Source of the DNA: an uncultured virus (IMG/VR IMGVR_UViG_3300046740_000859)
Lineage: Duplodnaviria; Heunggongvirae; Uroviricota; Caudoviricetes
Virus record (IMG/VR): IMGVR_UViG_3300046740_000859
Strand: one strand, 5' to 3'
Length of the DNA stretch: 24,761 nt
Within the stretch, counting starts at the first letter, position 1; the number at the start of each line of letters is the position of its first letter. Below the pieces are notes generated by a model, which was not told where the DNA came from, searched no databases, and saw only the letters and a program-made list of their open reading frames with translations. Shown here one piece after another: positions 757 through 17,340 of this stretch. The translations under genes and the position numbers were made by a program.

Positions 757-2267
757 CGGAGCACCATGAGCTTCGAGGACGCCCGCGTGACGGCCGTGTA
801 GAGCCACCTACGCCAGTCCTCTTCACCGACCGGTCCGGGCTTCTCAGCGCAGACGACCAGATCGTCGAACTGCGAACCCTGCATCTTGTGCACGGTCATC
901 GCGTAGCCAAAGTCGAAGAGGCTTCCGGCAGTCGAGAACGAGTGGATCCCTGTCTCACGCGCGAGCTCCTCAGGCGAGGAGTACGTCTTCTCGCGCCCGA
1001 ACTGCGGCCCGAACATCTCGTACTCCACCACGCTGATCTCGTCCTCAGGGAACTCGATCGTACCGAGAAGCTGCGTTTCGCTTTCTCGCGCCGACTTTCC
1101 GTAGGCGTCCGTCAGCTCGCCGTGCGTGTCCCTGACCAACTTCCACGTCACATCGCCCTGAAGCACGCCGCGCATCCCGTTGGCCACTGGCGGGCGGCCG
1201 CCTTGCTCCTTGATGTTGCGAAGGCAGATGACATGCTCGCCCTTACGCGGAAGATCCCGGCCATCTCGTGAGATACCTCGCACGCGACGAACGGTAGCGT
1301 TGAGCCCGACGCGCCGACGGTTGGTGTAGCAAGCAAGCCCCATTTCGAGCAGGCGCACCGCCGAGGCGTTCTCGTAACGCTCCTCGACGATCCGATCGAT
1401 GAAGCGTAGCCGCTCGAACCGCACCGAGTCGCCGGGCATGCTCTCGGGAAGGCGCCCTTCCTCACGGATCAACTTCGAGAGCGCGATGATGGGATTACCC
1501 TCCGCTTGCCGGTGGATCTTCTCGAGGCGTAGGTTGGGGCTCTTCATGAGGCTACCAACGCCGCCGACGGGCGGGAGCTGGCCGTGGTCGCCAACCGCAA
1601 GGATCGGCACGCCGTAGCTCTGGAGGTCGCGGAGCATCATGTCGTCGACCATCGACGCCTCGTCTACGATGATGAGCCCGTAGCGTCGATCGAGCGCTTC
1701 TCGGCGAAGCCACTCCTTGCCACCACAGAGCTTGCACCTGCCGTCGACTTTCTCGACGTAGACGAACTTCTGCGCCGGCTTGAGCGCGTCGAAGGCTGCC
1801 TTCGACTTGATCAACCCGACGTGCCCTTTCGCGCAAACGCTCCGGACCGGAAGGTCGTACTCCCAAGTCGTCTCGCCGACGCAGCCCTTCTCAGGGCACG
1901 GCTTCTGGATCTCGACGGTCTTCGGTTCGAGGCAATCGCACGGCCGGTAGATGAGCGAGTGGATCGTCCCGCAGTAGGGGCGCGGGTCGGACGACGTTAT
2001 GCCATCGCGACTCCTCTTCTGCGCGCCGACGGTCTCGGTGCCGGCAGTCTTGAGCTTCCTGCGCAGCACGGAGGTTGCCTTGCCGGTGTACGCAGTGAAC
2101 GCCGGCAAGTCGACCTGCGCAGCGACGAGCGACACGAGCGTGCTCTTCCCAGAGCCTGCGTAGCCTCCAAGCGAGAGGAGGCCCCCGTCGGCGTCGCGCA
2201 CCCAACCGACGATAGCGTTGTAGGCCGAGAGTTGATCAGACGAGAGATCCTTGACGGTGATGTTCAC
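753..2267 (-). CDS. SF1B Dda/RecD2-like DNA helicase with Cys-rich insertion
   Basis: Walker A GYAGSGKST, TIHSLIY, IIVDEASMV, GDHGQLPPV, IHRQ, YAMTVHKMQGSQF, LYTAVTRA. Start reassigned to GTG 2267, overlapping the upstream TGA. Confidence 0.93.
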   Translation of the reverse strand: MNITVKDLSSDQLSAYNAIVGWVRDADGGLLSLGGYAGSGKSTLVSLVAAQVDLPAFTAYTGKATSVLRRKLKTAGTETVGAQKRSRDGITSSDPRPYCGTIHSLIYRPCDCLEPKTVEIQKPCPEKGCVGETTWEYDLPVRSVCAKGHVGLIKSKAAFDALKPAQKFVYVEKVDGRCKLCGGKEWLRREALDRRYGLIIVDEASMVDDMMLRDLQSYGVPILAVGDHGQLPPVGGVGSLMKSPNLRLEKIHRQAEGNPIIALSKLIREEGRLPESMPGDSVRFERLRFIDRIVEERYENASAVRLLEMGLACYTNRRRVGLNATVRRVRGISRDGRDLPRKGEHVICLRNIKEQGGRPPVANGMRGVLQGDVTWKLVRDTHGELTDAYGKSARESETQLLGTIEFPEDEISVVEYEMFGPQFGREKTYSSPEELARETGIHSFSTAGSLFDFGYAMTVHKMQGSQFDDLVVCAEKPGPVGEEDWRRWLYTAVTRASSKLMVLR

Positions 2268-2725
2268 GGCTGCCTCCTGGCACACACGGGTCCGAGCCCA
2301 GTCGAGACGCTTTCGGGTGTTGTAAGCCGACGCCCGCAGCGCCCACAGCGCCCTTCGTGGTAGACAGCGAGCTCCGGGTGCGCCTGCCCCGCCGAGAGGC
2401 GCCGCCACACCCACGAGAACGCGACAGCGTTCGGCGCGCTCGAATCGATGCGGCTCTTTTTGCCATGCGCGTACACGAGCCCACGGTAGATGCACCCGAG
2501 GTACTGATAGCTGCGGTCGTTGTCGGGGCCCACCAATACGGACACGAAGTGCGGGAGCTCGCCGGTGTCGCCTGCACGGCGCTCGGCTTGGACTACGCGA
2601 TAGGTGAACCGAGTGTCCGTCCGCCGGCTCTGGAACGTCACGTGGGCGTTCCCAGCCAGCATGAAGGCCACGGTAGCGGCGGGGTCGATGAGTTCGGCGC
2701 GAGGGCCGGGAGAGTCGTCCGTCAT
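2264..2725 (-). CDS. DUF6011-containing protein (C-terminal Zn finger)
   Basis: C-terminal HEGRCGRCGRRLTTPESVSTGLGPVC is the DUF6011 pattern; N-terminal AGNAHVTFQS..RFTYRV..GPDN is recalled from phage members. ATG 2725 chosen because it lies outside the polymerase gene. Confidence 0.85.
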   Translation of the reverse strand: MTDDSPGPRAELIDPAATVAFMLAGNAHVTFQSRRTDTRFTYRVVQAERRAGDTGELPHFVSVLVGPDNDRSYQYLGCIYRGLVYAHGKKSRIDSSAPNAVAFSWVWRRLSAGQAHPELAVYHEGRCGRCGRRLTTPESVSTGLGPVCARRQP

Positions 2726-2808
2726 GGCTGTAAAAGAGAGGTGATCCTGCATGTAAACACTGACGAGAGGGTTCAACGATCTATTCACTATCTGTACACC
2801 TTCCGACG

Positions 2809-5403
2809 TCATCCGAAAGCGCTCCACCGTTCGCCGACTTTCAGCTCGATCGGCATCACGAATTGGCGCGCCCCGTCCTCGACGCGTACGCTCGTACCCC
2901 ACCCGTTCGCTGGGATGACAACCGGTTCCTCCCACGTCGTTTTGACGAGCGCTTTCACACTATCGACGTGACGGTCAGGCACCTCCATGATCGCCGCGTC
3001 ATGGATCTGTGCGACGACGGACGAGCCGCTGGGCAATCGACTGGAAATGGACGGGAGGCGTACGTTCATCAACGATGCGATGCCTCCTTGGATCGGGCGG
3101 TTCGCGACGTCCGGGTACCCAGCGTGCCATCCGAGCCATGAGATCCGCCCGGAGAGCGCGTCGCGGAGATGGCCGTGCTTGTCGACCCACTGCTTGTTCC
3201 GATCGACGTACCGGAAGTAGTGCGCGAACACGTCTCGCACCATGTCGTGCATCGAGACCACGTCTCGCATTTGGACGGGGAGCCCCTTGCTGCGCACGAA
3301 GCCGAAGATCGTGTCCGGCTGCGCGTAGTAGATGAACCCGAAGATGCAGTTCTTCTCGACGTCGCGGAAGGGCTTCCCCACGCCCTTCGGATCTCGCCCG
3401 ATGAGCTCAGCCTCGGCGGGGAAGAGAAGCTTCGCCGTCGCGGTGTGCACGTCGCCGGACTCGCACGCGGCGATGAAGCTTTGATCTCCAGAGAGGTAGG
3501 CTGCGAATCGAAGCTCTGCTTGGCTGAGATCGAAGTAGATGAGCTTGTGCTCCGGACGCGCGACGTAGACTTCGCGCACGCGCGTCTCGAGCACGATGCT
3601 CTTGTCCTTGAGTTGCTCGGCTCTGGGGCACGACTGCAAACGGCACGAGTACCTACCGCTTGCGGCTCCGTAGCTTCTCCAGTTGAAATGCGTGCGCGAA
3701 ACGAGGGGCGTCTTCTTTGACGGCTTGTCGAGGATCTGGCTGACCAAGTAGGTGCTCTTGATCTTGACGACGCCGCGCCACTGCAAGAGCAGATCGGCGA
3801 ACCTGCCCGCGCGCGTGGAGTTGTTCTTGAGCCGTTCGAGCGTCGTCTGGGATGTACTCGGGAGCCCTGATTCGGTCGGGTCAGCCGACGCGAGCGGCGC
3901 TTTCAGGATCGTGAAGAGCGCCTTCCGAACCTCGGCGAGCTGCATCGGATGGAACTTCGCTCGGCGGAGCAGCTTCCGCATCTTCCAGAGAAGATCAGTC
4001 TCCTTTCGATCCATCTCTTCCAAGAGCTGCGTTCGGCGTTCCACGTCGACGCCGATGCCGTTGATGATCATGCCCCGGCACAATCTCGCGTTGTTCTTGT
4101 CGACCTCGTAGACGGCCCGCTCGTCTTCGAGGTCGGCTTGCATCTTGAGCCAAACTTGCGCTTGGATGCGCGCGTCCGCAGCGTTGTAGAGCGTCAACTC
4201 CTCACCGCTGAGCTTCTCGGGCGGGAGACCCTTCTCGGTCGTGCCGCCGGTGCCCTGCTTGAACGTCACCTTCCACGGCCCGGCATCGATGAACACGCTC
4301 GCGACGTGAGAGAGCCGTTGCGGCATGTGGCTCGCGAACGTGTGGTGCGCGATGAGCGTATCCTCGAGCTTGTCGTCGATGGGCTCGAACGGGACGTCGA
4401 AGCGATCGAGCGCGATCTGATCGAAGTTGTAGCCGTTGTGCATCCCGATCTTCTTCGACCGCTTGAAGAGCCCGTTCACGATTGGAGCGTGCGTCTTCGT
4501 CTTCCACGGCCAAATGACGACCGTGTGATCACCGTCCGAGATCCCAACGCAGAGGAGGCGGTTGCGAATAGGATCGGCGCCGTCTTTGCCGCCCTCCGTG
4601 CTCGCTCCAGTTTCGACGTCGACACTGATGATGGGCGCCAGCTTTTGGAGCTCTCGACGGACGTCGGCTTGCTTCGTGACGACGACGTACGGACCGTTCT
4701 CGAGGAGCATCTCGTGCGTCAGTTCCCCGCGCATCCATCGAGCGATCCGGTCGAGATCGATCTTCAAGATCGGAAGCCAAGTGTCGGAGCGAAGCACGAA
4801 CGCGGGGTGAACAGTCGGCAACACCGTCCTGCCGGCGAGCTTGCTTCGCCCGTCGACGATCTGCGCCTTGAGCCAGATCTCTTTCCACTTCGGGGCGCCG
4901 CGGAGCTTCGCCTTCTTCGCTTTGCTCCAGGCGGGGCCGGGGTCGAGCTCGCGTGCCGTCCAGACGAACCCGCGCGAGTTCATGATACTCCGAACGCCGA
5001 GCACAGAGAGCGTGCTCGTCTTGCCGAACGTCACGATGGGGATCTTCGGATCAAACTCGGCGAGCTCTTTCAAGAGTCGAGGGGCGCAGAAGGTGGCGGC
5101 GAGCTCGTTCTCCTTGTCGATGTTCGAGCGGCACAGCGCCGCGTTCGTGAGGTGTGCTTCGAGAATGTCGATGTCGACCTCACGGCAGAGCCCTTTGAGA
5201 AAAACGCCAGTCTGTCCAATGAATGGTGTTCCGAAAACTTCTTCTTTCCGCCCCGGCGCCTCGCCGACGAAGACGACCTTCGTGGGAAGCGGCGACGCCT
5301 TAGGCGGGACGACGGTGTTCCCTTTCAGCGGACAGAGATCACAGCGAGCACCGTGCTCTCGCGGACGGTACTCTTGAACGACAGAGAGCGCCTTCGCGGA
5401 CAT
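2809..5403 (-). CDS. polA: Family-4 uracil-DNA glycosylase / 3'-5' exonuclease / family A DNA polymerase fusion (SPO1-type)
   Basis: UDG: CDLCPL, VFVGEAPG, PFIG, TNAALC, TVHPA. Exonuclease: DVET, HNGYNFD, YNAAD. Polymerase: motif A DLSQAELR, motif B RDVEKNCIFGFIY, NRPIQG, motif C QIHDA. Confidence 0.93.
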   Translation of the reverse strand: MSAKALSVVQEYRPREHGARCDLCPLKGNTVVPPKASPLPTKVVFVGEAPGRKEEVFGTPFIGQTGVFLKGLCREVDIDILEAHLTNAALCRSNIDKENELAATFCAPRLLKELAEFDPKIPIVTFGKTSTLSVLGVRSIMNSRGFVWTARELDPGPAWSKAKKAKLRGAPKWKEIWLKAQIVDGRSKLAGRTVLPTVHPAFVLRSDTWLPILKIDLDRIARWMRGELTHEMLLENGPYVVVTKQADVRRELQKLAPIISVDVETGASTEGGKDGADPIRNRLLCVGISDGDHTVVIWPWKTKTHAPIVNGLFKRSKKIGMHNGYNFDQIALDRFDVPFEPIDDKLEDTLIAHHTFASHMPQRLSHVASVFIDAGPWKVTFKQGTGGTTEKGLPPEKLSGEELTLYNAADARIQAQVWLKMQADLEDERAVYEVDKNNARLCRGMIINGIGVDVERRTQLLEEMDRKETDLLWKMRKLLRRAKFHPMQLAEVRKALFTILKAPLASADPTESGLPSTSQTTLERLKNNSTRAGRFADLLLQWRGVVKIKSTYLVSQILDKPSKKTPLVSRTHFNWRSYGAASGRYSCRLQSCPRAEQLKDKSIVLETRVREVYVARPEHKLIYFDLSQAELRFAAYLSGDQSFIAACESGDVHTATAKLLFPAEAELIGRDPKGVGKPFRDVEKNCIFGFIYYAQPDTIFGFVRSKGLPVQMRDVVSMHDMVRDVFAHYFRYVDRNKQWVDKHGHLRDALSGRISWLGWHAGYPDVANRPIQGGIASLMNVRLPSISSRLPSGSSVVAQIHDAAIMEVPDRHVDSVKALVKTTWEEPVVIPANGWGTSVRVEDGARQFVMPIELKVGERWSAFG

Positions 5404-8700: not shown

Positions 8701-10317
8701 TCAGCCTCGTCCCTTCTTCTTGCTCTTCTTGGCGGCCTCATCGGTGTCGCCAACCACTTGTGAGCGCCTCAAGAGAATACGACTTTCCTCTGGACCCTTC
8801 CAAAAAGCTTGGATCCAGATCGGCTTACGCAGAGAGTGCTCCGGCCCGCAAGCTTGCTGGCGCCAATGGCCGCGAACGATAAATTGCACTTTCGGTGACG
8901 ATCCTTTACGGCCGACGCCTTCACATATTTCACGTACGTGTTCGCGAAGATCGATCTTCACTGGCGCCGAAAGAAGAAAACGAGCTTGGCAAAAATCTGG
9001 TTCTCCATGTCGTCGTCGCGCCGATCCTGGGGCGCCCCCAGAAGAACTACTACGTTTTTGGAAATCGTCTGGGTTCGAGAGGGCCAAGGCCGCACCTAAC
9101 GCCAATGATCGGCACATCCCCTCCATTGATTGGAGCACCTCGAGCGGCATGGGGCCCCCTTTCGTATCAATCGCTCTGACCTCCACGAGCCCAGCGCCAT
9201 CATCGTAAACCCACAAACGCGCGACGGCGCCTAACAAACCATCCGGGACAACAAGAGACCAAGCTTTCCACGGAGAGTTGATCGTCATGCCTGACGGTAC
9301 GTCCGTGAGACAAAGATTCGCCGCTAGCTTATGCGAAACTTCCAACTTCGCGTATCCGCACTTTCGCCACGCCAAAGAGAACTTGACGAAAAAATCACGA
9401 GCCGGCTCTGGCGCAACGATTCGTGTGAGCTCGGCGAACGTGCGTGCTACTTTCGCCAGCTCTGGTCGGGTGGCCATCACCGATACGAGGAGTTCGGGGC
9501 CCACGCCAAGTTTCCCGAGCGATCCGACAAGATGGGCCCATCCCATTGTAGCCGTTTCGATATTGTGCGCGCTCGTCAACGGGGGACACGGCACTTCAGC
9601 CGCCACTCGTTTGAGCTCGCGCACAAAAATTGGAAGAGGCACAGGTAACGCTTCAGCGAGTTCGAGTTCGCCCTTGCCTCGTTTGATAACGCGGTGGCGC
9701 CAAGCGAGCTCTCCGGCGAGATCACACCACACCTCACCGCCGGTCCTGCCTTTCGGGATCTCTTGGGCTAAACCTACCCATCCGTTTTCTACGACATGCG
9801 CCTGCACTTTGCCGGCAAGCCCCCCGAACGTTTCGATCAACCGATCGGCCAAACGTTGGATAGCAACGGTTCCCATCTCAGGATCCAACGCCCCCACCGC
9901 GTCACACAAATCATCGACATGGCCGTCAAGAAGCAGACGATTCAACGTACTGCTGATCAGCTCGACCGGTTTCAACGGGAAAGCCACGCTCAAGACTTTT
10001 TCGACCATAAGGCGCTTCACCTCGTCGACGCTTCCCCCCCCATGCTCGCGTGCCACGCGCTGAGCCACAGCCTCACGCAAAGGCCCAAGAAGATCCCCTA
10101 GAACTCTAGCTGCAACTAGAGGCAGCTCTTTCGCGTCAGTATCCGGAGCTAGTCGGCGCACCTCGCTCTCAGATCGTTGAAGCGCTTCCGACACCAACTG
10201 GTCGAAATAGTACTGTGACATCTGCGTCACAAGAGCCTCAGCTCTCTCGCTCGAATTTGCGTCAGGCATCATTGTGCGCCTTTCGGTGAGACGGTGATCG
10301 ATCCTCCAATCATCCAA
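8701..10317 (-). CDS. Large hypothetical protein with C-terminal VRGHWR motif; lower GC
   Basis: 538-aa ORF filling the gap; C-terminal VRGHWRQQACGP...PIWIQAFWKGP. Start uncertain (10317 or ~10270). Confidence 0.75.
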   Translation of the reverse strand: MDDWRIDHRLTERRTMMPDANSSERAEALVTQMSQYYFDQLVSEALQRSESEVRRLAPDTDAKELPLVAARVLGDLLGPLREAVAQRVAREHGGGSVDEVKRLMVEKVLSVAFPLKPVELISSTLNRLLLDGHVDDLCDAVGALDPEMGTVAIQRLADRLIETFGGLAGKVQAHVVENGWVGLAQEIPKGRTGGEVWCDLAGELAWRHRVIKRGKGELELAEALPVPLPIFVRELKRVAAEVPCPPLTSAHNIETATMGWAHLVGSLGKLGVGPELLVSVMATRPELAKVARTFAELTRIVAPEPARDFFVKFSLAWRKCGYAKLEVSHKLAANLCLTDVPSGMTINSPWKAWSLVVPDGLLGAVARLWVYDDGAGLVEVRAIDTKGGPMPLEVLQSMEGMCRSLALGAALALSNPDDFQKRSSSSGGAPGSARRRHGEPDFCQARFLLSAPVKIDLREHVREICEGVGRKGSSPKVQFIVRGHWRQQACGPEHSLRKPIWIQAFWKGPEESRILLRRSQVVGDTDEAAKKSKKKGRG

Positions 10318-10345: not shown

Positions 10346-11677
10346 TCATTTCCCAGTACCCTTCTGATCAGTGATCCCCCTCCTACTACCTTTTTTGATT
10401 GGAGGATTGGAGGAAGAAGGAACCAGTTTCAGGGGACGTTCTACTGAGCTTTCAGCAGGAAAATAGCGGCGGATGTCGTCGGCGCCCCTCACAATCTTCG
10501 TCCAGCCAATCGCCCGAAGCGCCTTGCCCGCCTTGATCTGCGCGGTGCGGTCCTGCCGGTCCTTAGGCACATCCACGGCGTTGGTGAGCAAGTCCGTGAT
10601 CATCACCCCGCCCTTTCGGTAGAGCCCCCGGTTCATGTGCAGGTACTCCTTGAAGTGGATCTCCCACGGATCAGCTTCTCGCCGCTCCTCAGCCTCAGCC
10701 TCCGTCGCCTTGAGCAACTTTTCGTCGTGCGTGTACCACTTCTCATTCGCGCGGTACCGCTTGAACGCTTCGGCCCAAAGCTGATCGCGCTCTGCGCGCA
10801 GTGTCACGAGATCGATCTTTTTGGTGATCAAGACGGGGCAGAAGCGTCGGGCGCCCGTCGTGTCGTTCAAGTATCCCGCACCGTTCGGGTTGACTGTTCC
10901 GGCGAACACGCACTGCCGCGGGAAGTCGAGCGTCATCTTACCGTACGAAGGGCGGTAGCTGTCCTTCACCGACGTGATGAAAGCTTTCACGCGGGCGAGA
11001 TCGGCGCTGCCGAGGGCGTCGAGCTCACTGAACTCGACGATCCATTTCCGACGGAGTGCTTGGTACCCGTCCTTGCCCCCGATGTTGAAGACCGTATCGA
11101 AAAACCAATCGTCGGACGCGAGCGTGCGGAAGAACGTTGACTTGTGCCACCCCTGCGGTCCTTCGAGGATGAGTACGGTGTCAACTTGTGCTCCCGGACG
11201 CATCACACGAGCAACAGCGCCAAGAAAGAAATTCTTGGTGACGGCACGAGTGTAAGGCGTATCGGGCGCACCTCCAACACGGATGAGCAGATCGTCGACG
11301 CGCGACTTCTTGTCCCACCCGCCAACATCGTTCAGATGCTCTCGTATCGGATGGAACGCCCACCGCTCCGCGACAAGCTGCACGGCCTCGTCGACGACGG
11401 ACGAGTAGAACGAGCAACCGTACTCGTTCGAGAGCCACACGGCCGCTCGCGCCGAATCGCTTTGAGTCCAATCGCCGATTTCCGTATTCGCGGGCGCGAG
11501 ATCCTCAGGCCACGGAGGCGACTTCTTCTTGACGATCACCCCAGCGAACGCATCGAGGGCGATGACGTTGTACCACTCCTTTCGGTGCGTGAGGATCGCG
11601 ACGGCGTTGGCCAGGCACGGCAAGTACGCGCCCTGCTTGTTCTTGAGGAGATAGGTGTCCCAGCTAGCTGTCGCCAA
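10346..11677 (-). CDS. VapE/VirE (virulence-associated protein E-like) P-loop helicase without N-terminal primase
   Basis: FHPIREHL, GAVARVMRPG, LILEGPQGWHKST, WIVEFSELD, DSYRPSYG, RQCVFAGTVN, DTTGARRF, RDQLWAEA. Start reassigned to TTG 11677, 7 nt after GGGAGG. Confidence 0.9.
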   Translation of the reverse strand: MATASWDTYLLKNKQGAYLPCLANAVAILTHRKEWYNVIALDAFAGVIVKKKSPPWPEDLAPANTEIGDWTQSDSARAAVWLSNEYGCSFYSSVVDEAVQLVAERWAFHPIREHLNDVGGWDKKSRVDDLLIRVGGAPDTPYTRAVTKNFFLGAVARVMRPGAQVDTVLILEGPQGWHKSTFFRTLASDDWFFDTVFNIGGKDGYQALRRKWIVEFSELDALGSADLARVKAFITSVKDSYRPSYGKMTLDFPRQCVFAGTVNPNGAGYLNDTTGARRFCPVLITKKIDLVTLRAERDQLWAEAFKRYRANEKWYTHDEKLLKATEAEAEERREADPWEIHFKEYLHMNRGLYRKGGVMITDLLTNAVDVPKDRQDRTAQIKAGKALRAIGWTKIVRGADDIRRYFPAESSVERPLKLVPSSSNPPIKKGSRRGITDQKGTGK

Positions 11678-11718
11678 TGGCGCGCCTCCCTTTCGACGGT
11701 TCGACGAGTAGAAAGTCG

Positions 11719-11782
11719 AGGCTAGCTCCGCGCGTGAGTCGGCGTCAAGACTCTTGTCAGACAAAAAGAAACCGCGTATAAC
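11719..11782. promoter_or_regulatory. Back-to-back divergent sigma70-type promoters
   Basis: Plus: TTGTCA(11754)-N17-TATAAC(11777). Minus: TTGACG(11748)-N18-TAGCCT(11724). Palindrome CAAGA-C-TCTTG spans both -35 boxes. Confidence 0.7.
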
Positions 11783-11789
11783 CGCCTGT

Positions 11790-11969
11790 GTGAAGAACGT
11801 CGAAATCATCTACGCGCGAGTTCCGCGCGAGCTGCGAAGCGCACTCGAACAGGAACGAAAGCGCATGAGCAAGGCGGCTGGGGCCAAAGTGAAAACGAGT
11901 GCGGTCATCCGCACGATCCTTGAGCGCGGCCTGCGCGCCGCTCAGCAAGACGTCGCTAGGACCGGGTGA
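11790..11969 (+). CDS. Ribbon-helix-helix DNA-binding protein, probably leaderless
   Basis: IIYARVPRELRSALEQER...KTSAVIRTILERGL; GTG lies 7 nt after the -10 box. Confidence 0.75.
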   Translation: MKNVEIIYARVPRELRSALEQERKRMSKAAGAKVKTSAVIRTILERGLRAAQQDVARTG

Positions 11970-11983
11970 AGGAGCATCGAAGC

Positions 11984-12364
11984 ATGAAAGTGATCTATCT
12001 CGCGCACCCGTTCACCGCGCCGACGCGCGAGGCCATGGAAGCGAATCGTCGGCGAGCGACGGCCTGGGCGGTGTGGGCGCTCACAACACAAGACGTGTCG
12101 CCGGTCTGCTCGTGGATCGTCTTCACCGGCGCGCTCCCGGAAACACCGGAGAGTCGAAGGCTCGGGCTGGAAGCAGACAAGGCGCAGGTCGCTCGCTGCG
12201 AAGAGATCTGGCTCGTCGGCGGGCGCGTCTCGAGCGGGATGGCTGTCGAAGCGAGCGCCTCGCAGAAAGTCATCGACCTCACGCACCTCGGAGAATGGCC
12301 CCCAGGGCACGAACCCGAGATATCGGACACCGATCCCGCGCCTGCCGTGGGGTATGGGGGATGA
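11984..12364 (+). CDS. DUF4406-like protein (nucleoside 2-deoxyribosyltransferase-like fold)
   Basis: VIYLAHPF...N...SPV...RRLGL...CEEIWLVGGRVSSGMAVE; GAAGGAG RBS. Confidence 0.7.
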   Translation: MKVIYLAHPFTAPTREAMEANRRRATAWAVWALTTQDVSPVCSWIVFTGALPETPESRRLGLEADKAQVARCEEIWLVGGRVSSGMAVEASASQKVIDLTHLGEWPPGHEPEISDTDPAPAVGYGG

Positions 12365-12591
12365 TCGCTGCCCTTCGGATCGTCGCGACACTCTACTTAG
12401 CCATCGGCTTCGGATCCGTCGTCTGGTACGTCACGTGGCTCGAAGGGATCGAAGGCTTCTTAGCGGAGTGGCAGGGGCCGCAAAGCGGAGCTCGATTCTG
12501 GCTCGGCCTGATCACAACGTTCGTCGTCGGGCTCGTGCTCGACGTGATCTTGTGGCCCCTCAACGTGCGCGCCCTTCGGGGCGGCCCATGA
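12361..12591 (+). CDS. Small two-TM membrane protein
   Basis: Two hydrophobic segments and a C-terminal ILWPL; ATGA coupling on both sides. Confidence 0.7.
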   Translation: MIAALRIVATLYLAIGFGSVVWYVTWLEGIEGFLAEWQGPQSGARFWLGLITTFVVGLVLDVILWPLNVRALRGGP

Positions 12592-13052
12592 ACCTCACGG
12601 TACAGATCGAACCACCTCGACGGAAGGTTACGCGCCGCGGGCCCATGGCAGGTAACCGCGGGCAGGGCAGCAAGTGGTTGTGGCCGTCAACAAGACGCCG
12701 CATCTACGAACGTGACGACTGGCGGTGCGTGTGGTGCACCGAAAAAGTCGAACAGCCCACGCTGCCGGAAGACGGGATCTTGGTAAGCGGCGGCATCATC
12801 CGCCAAGCATCGATCGATCACGTTGTTCCGAGAGCGCGTGGCGGCTCGAACGACCCACGCAACCTCATCACCTGCTGCGCCCAGTGCAACGCGAAGCGCG
12901 GTCATCGGAGCGTGCCGGCGTTCGCCAAAGCAATCGCAGAGACGCACGGCTGCGGCTGCGGCGGCTGCCACGTCGACTCGATCGCCGTCATCGTTCGGCG
13001 CGTTCGAGCCGCGAAGCGGCGCAGGCTGCCTCCCCAGAGAATCGACGCATGA
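12588..13052 (+). CDS. HNH endonuclease
   Basis: RRIYERDDWRCVWC...IDHVVPRARGGSNDPRNLITCCAQCNAKRG. Confidence 0.92.
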   Translation: MNLTVQIEPPRRKVTRRGPMAGNRGQGSKWLWPSTRRRIYERDDWRCVWCTEKVEQPTLPEDGILVSGGIIRQASIDHVVPRARGGSNDPRNLITCCAQCNAKRGHRSVPAFAKAIAETHGCGCGGCHVDSIAVIVRRVRAAKRRRLPPQRIDA

Positions 13053-14461
13053 GTCCTTTCGCCCTGACGCTCTGGCGCACCTTCTCGCGCGGACGACGCG
13101 AGAAGCACACCTGGCAATCGTTCATCGACACGTTCGTACGTGACCCCGAGGTTGTGCGCGACAAGCGCAAGGTCGCAGGCTTCTCGCTCGCATCCTTCAC
13201 CGACAATCGGCGAGCGCTTCCTCGAGTCGAGCAAGTGCACGCGCTCATCCTCGACTTCGACGAAGGCGACACGACGATCCGCCAAGCTGCGCATCTTCTC
13301 CCGAACGTGCGCGGAGTGACGTACACGACGTTCAGACACACGTCCGAGCACCCAAAGTTGCGCGTCATCTTCCTTCTGAGCAGGCCCGTCGACGCCGAAG
13401 AGTACTCGCGCGTTTGGGCGTGGGTCGCCGACAAGATCACACGAGCGAAACGTGTGCTCGACGAGTCGACACGCGATGCGAGTCGATTCTGGTACCTCCC
13501 GAGCCACCCGCCTGGATCGACGTACGAATGGCACGAGCTCGAAGGCCAACCGCTAGACGTGACGAAGGCCCTGAGCGAAACGAGCACACACACACGCCCT
13601 TTCCCTGTGGGAGCTCCGGTGCGCGGACGGCAACCTGCGGCACACAAGCCTGGAAAAGGGCGTGTGTGTGCCGATCTCTCCGACGCCGATCAAACTTTCT
13701 TCGGACGAGCGTTCGCGTTCGCCGGCATGGCGTTCGAGCTGCTAGATAACGGTGCGCTCCCAGTCGTATGCCCTTGGGCGAGGGCGCACACTGGCGGCAC
13801 TGATGGCGACTCCTCGACGGTCGTCTTCCCGCCGACGACAGAGGCAGGCTGGGGGCTCTTCCATTGCTCCCACGCACACTGTACGGGGCGCGAGACGTCC
13901 GATCTGCTCGATGTGCTGCCTGTCGCGTCGCTCGATGCGGCTCGGCGCGAGCACGGTCGAGGTCTCCTTCGCGTGCGTGTGATCGACGGCTGGTTTCAGC
14001 GCCTAGAAGCGATGCCGGAGTTCCCCGCGCTCGACAGGTTCATTTTGAAATGCCGTCCGCGTGAGGGCGGTGCGGTCTTCACGATGACGGTGAAGATCGG
14101 GAGCACGCTCCACGTGCAGTACCTAGATGCGCTGTCGTTGCCGTTGCTGATCGGTCGACGTGTCGACGTCGCGATGGAGGATCGAAAGGTAAGAGGCGCT
14201 CGTCTCGTGATCGACAAGCTTGAGCTGACGAAGACGGAGCAACGCGCGCGTTTCGAGTCGATCTCGGCCTCGTACGCGCCAGGTGATTCGGTCAGCGGTG
14301 CCGACTTCGACTTTCTCTTCGCGCTGGCTCGCCGGCACTCTCGCTTCGAGGAGATTATCGGTCCGGGTGTGCGGAGGATCCGTGCGCGCGAGGGGCGTTC
14401 AGGCTTCGACGTCGTGCGAGTAGACGGCTCGTGTGTGGGTTTTTCAGGGAAGGGCGGCTGA
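13049..14461 (+). CDS. AEP-like primase (prim-pol) with Zn finger and C-terminal DUF3223/DCL-like domain
   Basis: LILDFD, YTTFRH, PKLRVI, DASRFWYLP (primase N-domain of the type usually fused to VapE/D5); CPWxxxH...FHCSHAHC Zn finger. ATG 13049 overlaps the HNH stop. Confidence 0.78.
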   Translation: MSPFALTLWRTFSRGRREKHTWQSFIDTFVRDPEVVRDKRKVAGFSLASFTDNRRALPRVEQVHALILDFDEGDTTIRQAAHLLPNVRGVTYTTFRHTSEHPKLRVIFLLSRPVDAEEYSRVWAWVADKITRAKRVLDESTRDASRFWYLPSHPPGSTYEWHELEGQPLDVTKALSETSTHTRPFPVGAPVRGRQPAAHKPGKGRVCADLSDADQTFFGRAFAFAGMAFELLDNGALPVVCPWARAHTGGTDGDSSTVVFPPTTEAGWGLFHCSHAHCTGRETSDLLDVLPVASLDAARREHGRGLLRVRVIDGWFQRLEAMPEFPALDRFILKCRPREGGAVFTMTVKIGSTLHVQYLDALSLPLLIGRRVDVAMEDRKVRGARLVIDKLELTKTEQRARFESISASYAPGDSVSGADFDFLFALARRHSRFEEIIGPGVRRIRAREGRSGFDVVRVDGSCVGFSGKGG

Positions 14462-17054: not shown

Positions 17055-17120
17055 AGGCTAAAGCCGGACGCGGGTAGAGGTCAAGCTTTCTTTGTCGGCT
17101 TGTTTCGTCGGTAAACATCT
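17055..17120. promoter_or_regulatory. Second divergent control region
   Basis: Minus: TTGACC(17084)-N18-TAGCCT(17060), the same -10 and spacer as at 11.7 kb. Plus: TTGTCG at 17092, with a weak -10. Confidence 0.6.
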
Positions 17121-17127
17121 GTTACGA

Positions 17128-17340
17128 ATGTCCGTTATGGTCGAAAACGAAGCCGATATCATGGTCGCCACACGCGTCGACAAGCCGCTGTACGCGAAGC
17201 TTCTAAAACGCCAGCGAGATGTCAAGAAGATGACCGGTATCGCTCCTAGCGTTAGCGCCATCGTGCGCGCGCTGATTGCGGAAGGGGTCGACAAGCCCGC
17301 AACAAGAAACGCACCGAGAAGGCACACACAACGAGAATGA
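17128..17340 (+). CDS. Ribbon-helix-helix protein
   Basis: IMVATRVDKPLYAKL...SVSAIVRALIAEGV; start 17128 or 17137. Confidence 0.72.
   Translation: MSVMVENEADIMVATRVDKPLYAKLLKRQRDVKKMTGIAPSVSAIVRALIAEGVDKPATRNAPRRHTQRE

Follow-up and report, generated by a model that had tools for sequence, protein, structure and literature searches.

A stand-alone phage primase with an accessory, partly eroded DUF3223 tail next to an OB-like barrel

The DNA analysed here, referred to as the window, is a stretch of 24,761 nucleotides from an uncultured virus of the Caudoviricetes (IMG/VR IMGVR_UViG_3300046740_000859) and was taken from a 45.8-kb virus record, G000, that is 54% complete. Its replication region encodes a RecD-like helicase, PolA, AAA_24, a PD-(D/E)XK nuclease and a VapE helicase around the primase gene of interest. 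The features relevant to this gene are as follows.

10346..11809, minus strand: divergent VapE-type helicase gene without a primase domain (Pfam, 240.9 bits)
11966..12364, plus strand: DUF7768 gene, variable between helicase and primase (comparison of family loci)
12588..13052, plus strand: canonical HNH endonuclease gene without DUF3223 (Pfam HNH_5, E 2.5e-11)
13049..14461, plus strand: stand-alone phage primase gene, 470 aa, in the order AEP, linker, Zn finger, OB-like barrel, DUF3223
13061..13588, plus strand: AEP primase-polymerase domain (PHROG matches, 6ZP9 fold, conservation)
13244-13267, 13322-13339 and 13457-13486, plus strand: AEP catalytic residues D69/D71, T93/H97 and D138/R146
13688..13954, plus strand: Zn-finger region with C241, H247, C273, H275/H277 and C278 (invariant columns; PHROG 16950)
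13958..14215, plus strand: OB-like five-stranded barrel, residues 304-389, about 85 aa (secondary structure, fold matches)
14228..14458, plus strand: DUF3223/DeCL/HamC-like tail, Pfam match at 14270-14446 (Pfam, 2K0M and HamC profiles)

The ATG of the primase gene (13049) overlaps the stop codon of the upstream HNH gene, and the homologues use the same start Met. A longer ORF starting at 12725 was rejected, as its extension overlaps the HNH gene and the homologues begin at 13049. An HNH gene between helicase and primase was also seen in the loci L002, L004 and L006. A small repressor-like ORF (11754-11969, plus strand), which overlaps the VapE ORF at its 5' end, recurs in the helicase-primase interval of most family loci; a second ORF of this type is located at 17092-17340 (plus strand). 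The family A DNA polymerase of the window (2809-5403, minus strand) carries an N-terminal domain of the uracil-DNA-glycosylase superfamily. A promoter scan returned no sigma-70 sites, four terminator-like sites were observed against 2.1 expected, and NCBIfam gave no matches for 11 proteins. As a weak hint to the host, one member of the primase family takes its name from a Polyangiaceae MAG, and MAGs of Polyangiaceae and Myxococcota contain distant relatives.

An earlier sequence-only reading had described the primase as lacking its usual fused helicase. No helicase is indeed fused to it, but a separate VapE gene lies divergently upstream. Positions 56-195 of PHROG 256 match the primase while positions 363-703 match the VapE gene, and VapE is located divergently upstream of the primase in all eight distinct family loci with enough upstream DNA. 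Because PHROG 256 spans both genes and the VapE layout is constant, the primase appears to be one half of a split phage primase-helicase, with VapE as its probable partner.

The AlphaFold2 model of the primase, built from a 34-sequence alignment, contains four folded parts (mean pLDDT 82.7). The AEP-like core and Zn finger proposed earlier were confirmed: the protein matches PHROG 9765 (E 4.5e-22) and PHROG 256 (E 1.1e-20), the best solved AEP fold is that of the cyanophage S-2L PrimPol AEP domain (6ZP9; E 3e-6, Z 10.0), and the Cys/His columns of the finger are invariant. The AEP fold also matches RepB' (Z 7.8). The motif I DxD, the motif II His and the motif III Asp are all intact (D69, D71, H97, D138). 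Among the 50 full-length family primases defined below, DxD is present in all and the motif II His in 45, and D138 and R146 are conserved in at least 90% of the family. The five primases missing this His (P0026, P0050, P0053, P0054 and P0063) may differ in activity. The same Zn finger precedes VapE or other helicases in the fused relatives P0058-P0062. The related AEPs P0056, P0057, P0068, P0073, P0075 and P0090 have another domain in its place; in two of them, P0075 and P0090, the C-terminus nevertheless matches the OB-like barrel weakly.

The earlier domain order was right in placing DUF3223 at the C-terminus but had overlooked the OB-like barrel (residues 304-389) between the Zn finger and the tail. 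In the AlphaFold2 model five strands form the barrel, with strands 3 and 4 separated by a helix, a topology that fits an OB fold. Many OB proteins match it at middling scores of Z 6-8, among them PrgE (Z 7.9) and PriB and SSBb (Z 6.8). The barrel occurs as distinct alleles within the family and, judged from the modelled fold, is a probable ssDNA-binding surface. Its junction with the tail was modelled at pLDDT 84-91.

The quoted C-terminal stretch is in place in the 470-aa ORF at 13049-14461 (plus strand), and several methods assign it to DUF3223. Pfam PF11523 matches residues 408-466 with an E-value of 1.1e-5 and 26.3 bits, above the cut-off of 21. PDB 2K0M matches the tail both by sequence (E 3.2e-5) and by fold (Foldseek E 3.6e-4, rmsd 1.7 over 76 columns; VIA Z 11.7). 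A profile made from nine free-standing DUF3223 proteins only scored the tail at 49.6 bits, the best of 2000 shuffles reaching 8.1, and the PADLOC HamC model PDLC00203 matches it with an E-value of 4.4e-8. The ESM atlas was uninformative, as its matches to the tail (0.89-0.91) were limited to a DUF927 cluster and clusters without a name.

The DUF3223 sequence pattern proposed earlier was borne out for GxG and RxDG, both present in the query, but the tail is shortened and does not have several of the residues retained by free proteins. We compared 17 tails, query included, with 34 free DUF3223 proteins. The GxG glycines occur in 17/17 tails, and R, D and G of RxDG in 16/17 each. The conserved Lys before IG is found in 3/17 tails versus 33/34 free proteins, the Tyr of the terminal helix in 1/17 versus 27/34 and its Cys in 1/17 versus 29/34; this Lys and the Tyr-x-x-Cys are missing in the query. 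The Phe of the N-terminal hairpin is gone from most tails. Fifteen of the 17 tails stop 5-13 residues past RxDG, while P0050 and P0051 run on. The median net charge of the tails is only slightly more positive than that of the free proteins (+2 vs. +0.5). The tail is a partly eroded, shortened DUF3223 without an HNH half.

To define the family, the best 8000 candidates of a primase homologue search were scored, which gave 61 proteins. The 57 members with a strong OB match were retained, and leaving out seven fragments gave 50 full-length proteins, of which 12, query included, carry the tail and 38 do not. With the fragments included, the tail is present in 16 protein clusters besides that of the query, and it is in frame in two other phage contigs. 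Because these further clusters and contigs share the fusion, and considering the shuffle control, a chance tail or a misassembly was rejected. The open literature yielded no description of a primase-DUF3223 fusion, subscription journals being mostly outside this coverage. We conclude that it is a real, conserved and apparently undescribed architecture of known parts.

Five phage records were searched for further DUF3223 domains. In the two tailed records the primase is the sole DUF3223 protein; the domain is absent from the three records without a tail, of which one is complete (G004, 83.9 kb), so that a stand-alone DUF3223 substituting for the tail was rejected (0/3 records). No tail remnants were detected behind the tail-less primases in 13 loci (best i-E 0.12). 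Since the complete tail-less phage G004 has no DUF3223, the tail is accessory and dispensable for the family.

These findings raise the question of whether the tail is a near-neutral passenger, i.e., the relic of a captured gene that is kept folded only to spare the primase. Its absence from 38 of the 50 relatives and from a complete phage genome would fit, as would the loss of conserved surface residues and of the last helix, and no other folded domain of the primase is as poorly conserved (56% vs. 64-70%). However, the dN/dS of the tail is approximately 0.19, 0.28 and 0.18 in three pairs (0.115/0.59, 0.363/1.31 and 0.356/1.99, the last two being near saturation), with 0.073/0.63 for the AEP domain in the first pair; the tail is under purifying selection. 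Lineages that share only about 50% identity in the AEP domain have also kept it, and the GxG and RxDG residues are retained as described above. We therefore regard a mere passenger as unlikely.

The tail also appears to have moved. Its presence or absence changes eight times on the AEP tree, six times on the OB tree and three times on a combined quick tree. In P0012, the AEP domain is 85% identical but the OB barrel only 46%, and this mismatch suggests that C-terminal modules have been exchanged.

The likely source of the tail was traced among free-standing DUF3223 genes. The DUF3223-side searches returned 43 viral loci, with several contigs represented more than once; they form 17 lineages at 55-60% identity (16 at 50%); the sample leans to GC-rich phages because the DNA pattern wrote Arg as CGN. 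All 32 loci from one of these searches encode a long form of about 215-250 aa. Examples annotated as HamC or 'DCL family' with a C-terminal HNH-like domain are listed below.

L168, 3965-4705: long HamC/'DCL family' gene with C-terminal HNH-like domain
L159, 3289-3969: as above
L174, 3602-4339: as above
L198, 3761-4405: as above

In the second half of the long forms, [HE]xDH is present in 29/34, a later invariant His in 34/34 and an Asn in 31/34, while the full CxxC-DH-CxxCN occurs in 2/34 (L174 and L198 keep both CxxC pairs). The domain carries an insert of about 55 aa. We take these residues to be an HNH motif, and the C-terminal half is very probably an HNH nuclease with an insert. Profile comparisons stayed below significance, with Pfam HNH E-values of 0.07-0.19 and atlas scores of 0.87-0.89; hhalign against a shallow HNH profile was not significant (probability 3.8), and a single-sequence model of a long protein, made without an alignment, reached a pLDDT of 36, too low to be usable. 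We found no description of such a domain in long HamC/DCL proteins in the open literature. Downstream of the DUF3223-HNH gene of L174 lies a gene for a 465-aa protein (1766-3160, minus strand) whose C2c1 RuvC-like match is weak and does not reach the cut-off (E 7e-5).

Six of the 17 viral lineages have the free DUF3223 gene within about 550 bp of a primase-helicase gene. It overlaps the start codon of the latter in L159, L158/L160 (including Sinorhizobium phage AP-16-3) and L167, and is separated from it by 540 bp in L177, 501 bp in L180 and 98 bp in L187, where the primase-helicase matched only over its helicase part. Under an assumed, unmeasured background of 7% or 15%, six of 17 corresponds to a p-value of 7e-4 or 0.03. 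Six further lineages place the gene in replication modules, with DnaB (L164), a helicase loader (L175), an initiator (L197), SNF2 helicases (L185, L198) or, in L165, a CHC2 finger and DnaB at 2.8 kb. The remaining five lie outside replication modules (L163, L166, L174, L200 and the L173 group); the L173 group is the largest lineage (15/43 loci; e.g., L193 3575-4291), with the gene between those for ParB/methylase and the terminase small subunit. From the primase side, a long-form DUF3223 gene was found 12 bp upstream of a primase-ZnF-VapE gene (L052). In a control of mechanically picked neighbours of primases (150/160 ORFs, 57/62 loci), canonical HNH was found twice and DUF3223 once; because of this 1/150, the free gene is considered a rare passenger and not a core partner. 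Of 40 plasmid matches four were opened; in an archaeal plasmid the DUF3223 gene is upstream of a primase/helicase-like gene, and in a Bartonella plasmid it is hamC following hamAB. PHROG 15934, found in the 538-aa ORF of the window (8701-10317, minus strand), directly adjoins DUF3223-HNH genes in two unrelated phages (L175 2698-3708 and L190 2545-3534).

In a careful DUF3223 tree (49 domains, 98 columns; the long-branch L163, L197 and L170 left out and L052 added), all 17 tails form one clade (100/99). Its sister is L183 (96/91), a DUF3223-HNH gene from the same contig as L159, the stop codon of which overlaps the start of a Prim-Pol helicase gene. The AU test did not reject a grouping of the tails with HamC L168 (p 0.057) or with the short stand-alone P0214 (p 0.171). 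P0050 and L159 are 43% identical over 96 aa, in an alignment that does not stop with DUF3223 but reaches into the helix preceding the HNH half. No HNH half was found behind the tail in three tailed genomes, nor elsewhere in G000. The tail donor was thus likely a free-standing phage DUF3223-HNH gene, nothing plant-like, and the simplest history would be a single in-frame capture at the 3' end of the primase gene followed by truncation. The C-terminal position of the tail contrasts with that of most free genes, which precede the primase. That the putative donor genes often adjoin phage primase genes hints that the domain acts on nucleic acids at the replication fork.

The earlier view that bacterial DUF3223 proteins are uncharacterised needs a correction: according to PMC8565338, they are already named HamC, an accessory gene of Hachiman type II that is present in 3.8% of Hachiman systems, and 2K0M is classed as a HamC; the function is given there as unknown, in line with that view. 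PMC11914072 and PMC13064477 hold one mention each. The tail could hence be a nuclease-dead HamC mimic that binds and disarms host HamAB at the fork. Its match to the PADLOC HamC model, the HamC status of its best structural match (2K0M; PMC8565338) and the same two-domain form of the long HamC beside hamAB are compatible with such a decoy. Nevertheless, the nearest relatives of the tail are primase-side phage genes rather than HamC, and only a small share of Hachiman systems have HamC at all (PMC8565338). In incomplete myxobacterial or deltaproteobacterial genomes HamA was found in 0/4 and DUF3223 in 0/5 with a working positive control, which is soft evidence as the link to these hosts is weak. 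We consider a decoy highly improbable.

We give a probability of about 0.5 to the reading that the tail is a captured, nuclease-less nucleic-acid-binding module that extends the OB surface. An ancestral primase would have acquired its DUF3223 tail in frame from an adjacent gene for a DUF3223-HNH nuclease and then lost the HNH half, after which tail and OB barrel would have been spread or lost jointly by recombination. Beside the OB barrel, the tail may help the helicase-less primase to hold the template or primer-template at the fork. Binding of RNA by the DUF3223 of plant Domino would be a precedent, reported among the sources covered only for AtDomino (bioRxiv 10.64898/2026.01.19.700320; PMC12972900). 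The purifying selection on the tail and the confidently modelled OB-tail junction favour this reading. Against it count the loss of the Lys, Tyr and Cys, the barely raised net charge, the 38 relatives without a tail, the HamC grouping left standing by the AU test, the motif-level support for HNH and the location of the L173 group.

Alternatively, the tail might be a docking module tethering the split primase to its helicase or to another fork protein, by analogy to DeCL docking RRP6L1 on Pol V. The window primase has lost its fused helicase, and DUF3223 genes recur beside helicases (HamB, DnaB, D5, SNF2 and VapE). A DeCL-containing fragment is stated to interact with RRP6L1 (10.1101/111831), and the Domino DUF3223 is proposed as a La1 binder (bioRxiv 10.64898/2026.01.19.700320). 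Yet tail-less primases also adjoin VapE helicases that are 60-79% identical to that of the window, so helicase tethering cannot depend on the tail, and docking appears improbable compared with the captured binding module.

A natural pair of tailed and tail-less versions of one small enzyme makes the effect of the domain directly assayable. Plant Pol V requires DUF3223 in vivo, and the domain is the hallmark of Hachiman type II; the tailed primase bears on its role in prokaryotes, although the accessory and partly degraded state of the tail limits the reach of this claim. A more useful lead than the fusion itself is the association of DUF3223 with a probable HNH nuclease and with phage primase-helicase genes, since long HamC/DCL proteins read as DUF3223 plus HNH near phage primase-helicases suggest a testable function for HamC. 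Speculatively, and with considerable doubt, DUF3223 could be an ancient module targeting forks made by helicases or primases. It would aim the phage HNH nuclease beside primase-helicase genes and turn the long HamC into a second nuclease, unrecognised so far and linked to the HamB helicase. The window primase would have captured it without the nuclease, either as an anchor at the fork or as a decoy against Hachiman, much as plant Pol IV/V recruited DeCL.

Among known systems, S-2L PrimPol and the VapE/VirE-linked phage primase-helicases of PHROG 256 share with the window primase the AEP fold, the catalytic motifs and the VapE partner. In contrast to PHROG 256, the helicase of the window is separate and on the other strand, and the primase ends in a Zn finger, the OB-like barrel and an optional DUF3223 instead of PriCT-2 and a helicase. 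S-2L PrimPol, the nearest solved AEP, is described as having a steric gate that admits only dNTPs (PMC8065100). The RNA-primer synthesis proposed earlier is a conjecture for the window primase. The putative donor resembles the T4 mob genes, free-standing HNH homing endonucleases (PMC2988022), in being two-part and located between conserved replication genes, but its second domain is an N-terminal DUF3223 and its HNH motif has the insert of about 55 aa. HamC of Hachiman type II is related to the tail through the PADLOC models, whereas the tail is fused to a primase and lacks the C-terminal HNH-like half; hamA was found neither in G000 (54% complete) nor in the complete G002, the control L168 being positive. 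Finally, the DUF3223/DeCL family (PF11523; plant DCL/DOMINO, the NRPD1/NRPE1 C-terminal domain, ciliate Mlp1 and 2K0M) has the same fold and belongs to the same sequence family as the tail, and a profile of free phage DUF3223 proteins also finds the Pol IV and Pol V subunits (E 2e-18 and 4e-13). Unlike plant DeCL, the tail is joined to an AEP primase via an OB-like barrel and has mostly lost the hairpin Phe, the Lys and the Tyr/Cys helix. Like the Pol V CTD, which is reported to be dispensable in vitro (10.1101/111831), it is appended to the C-terminus of a nucleic-acid polymerase.
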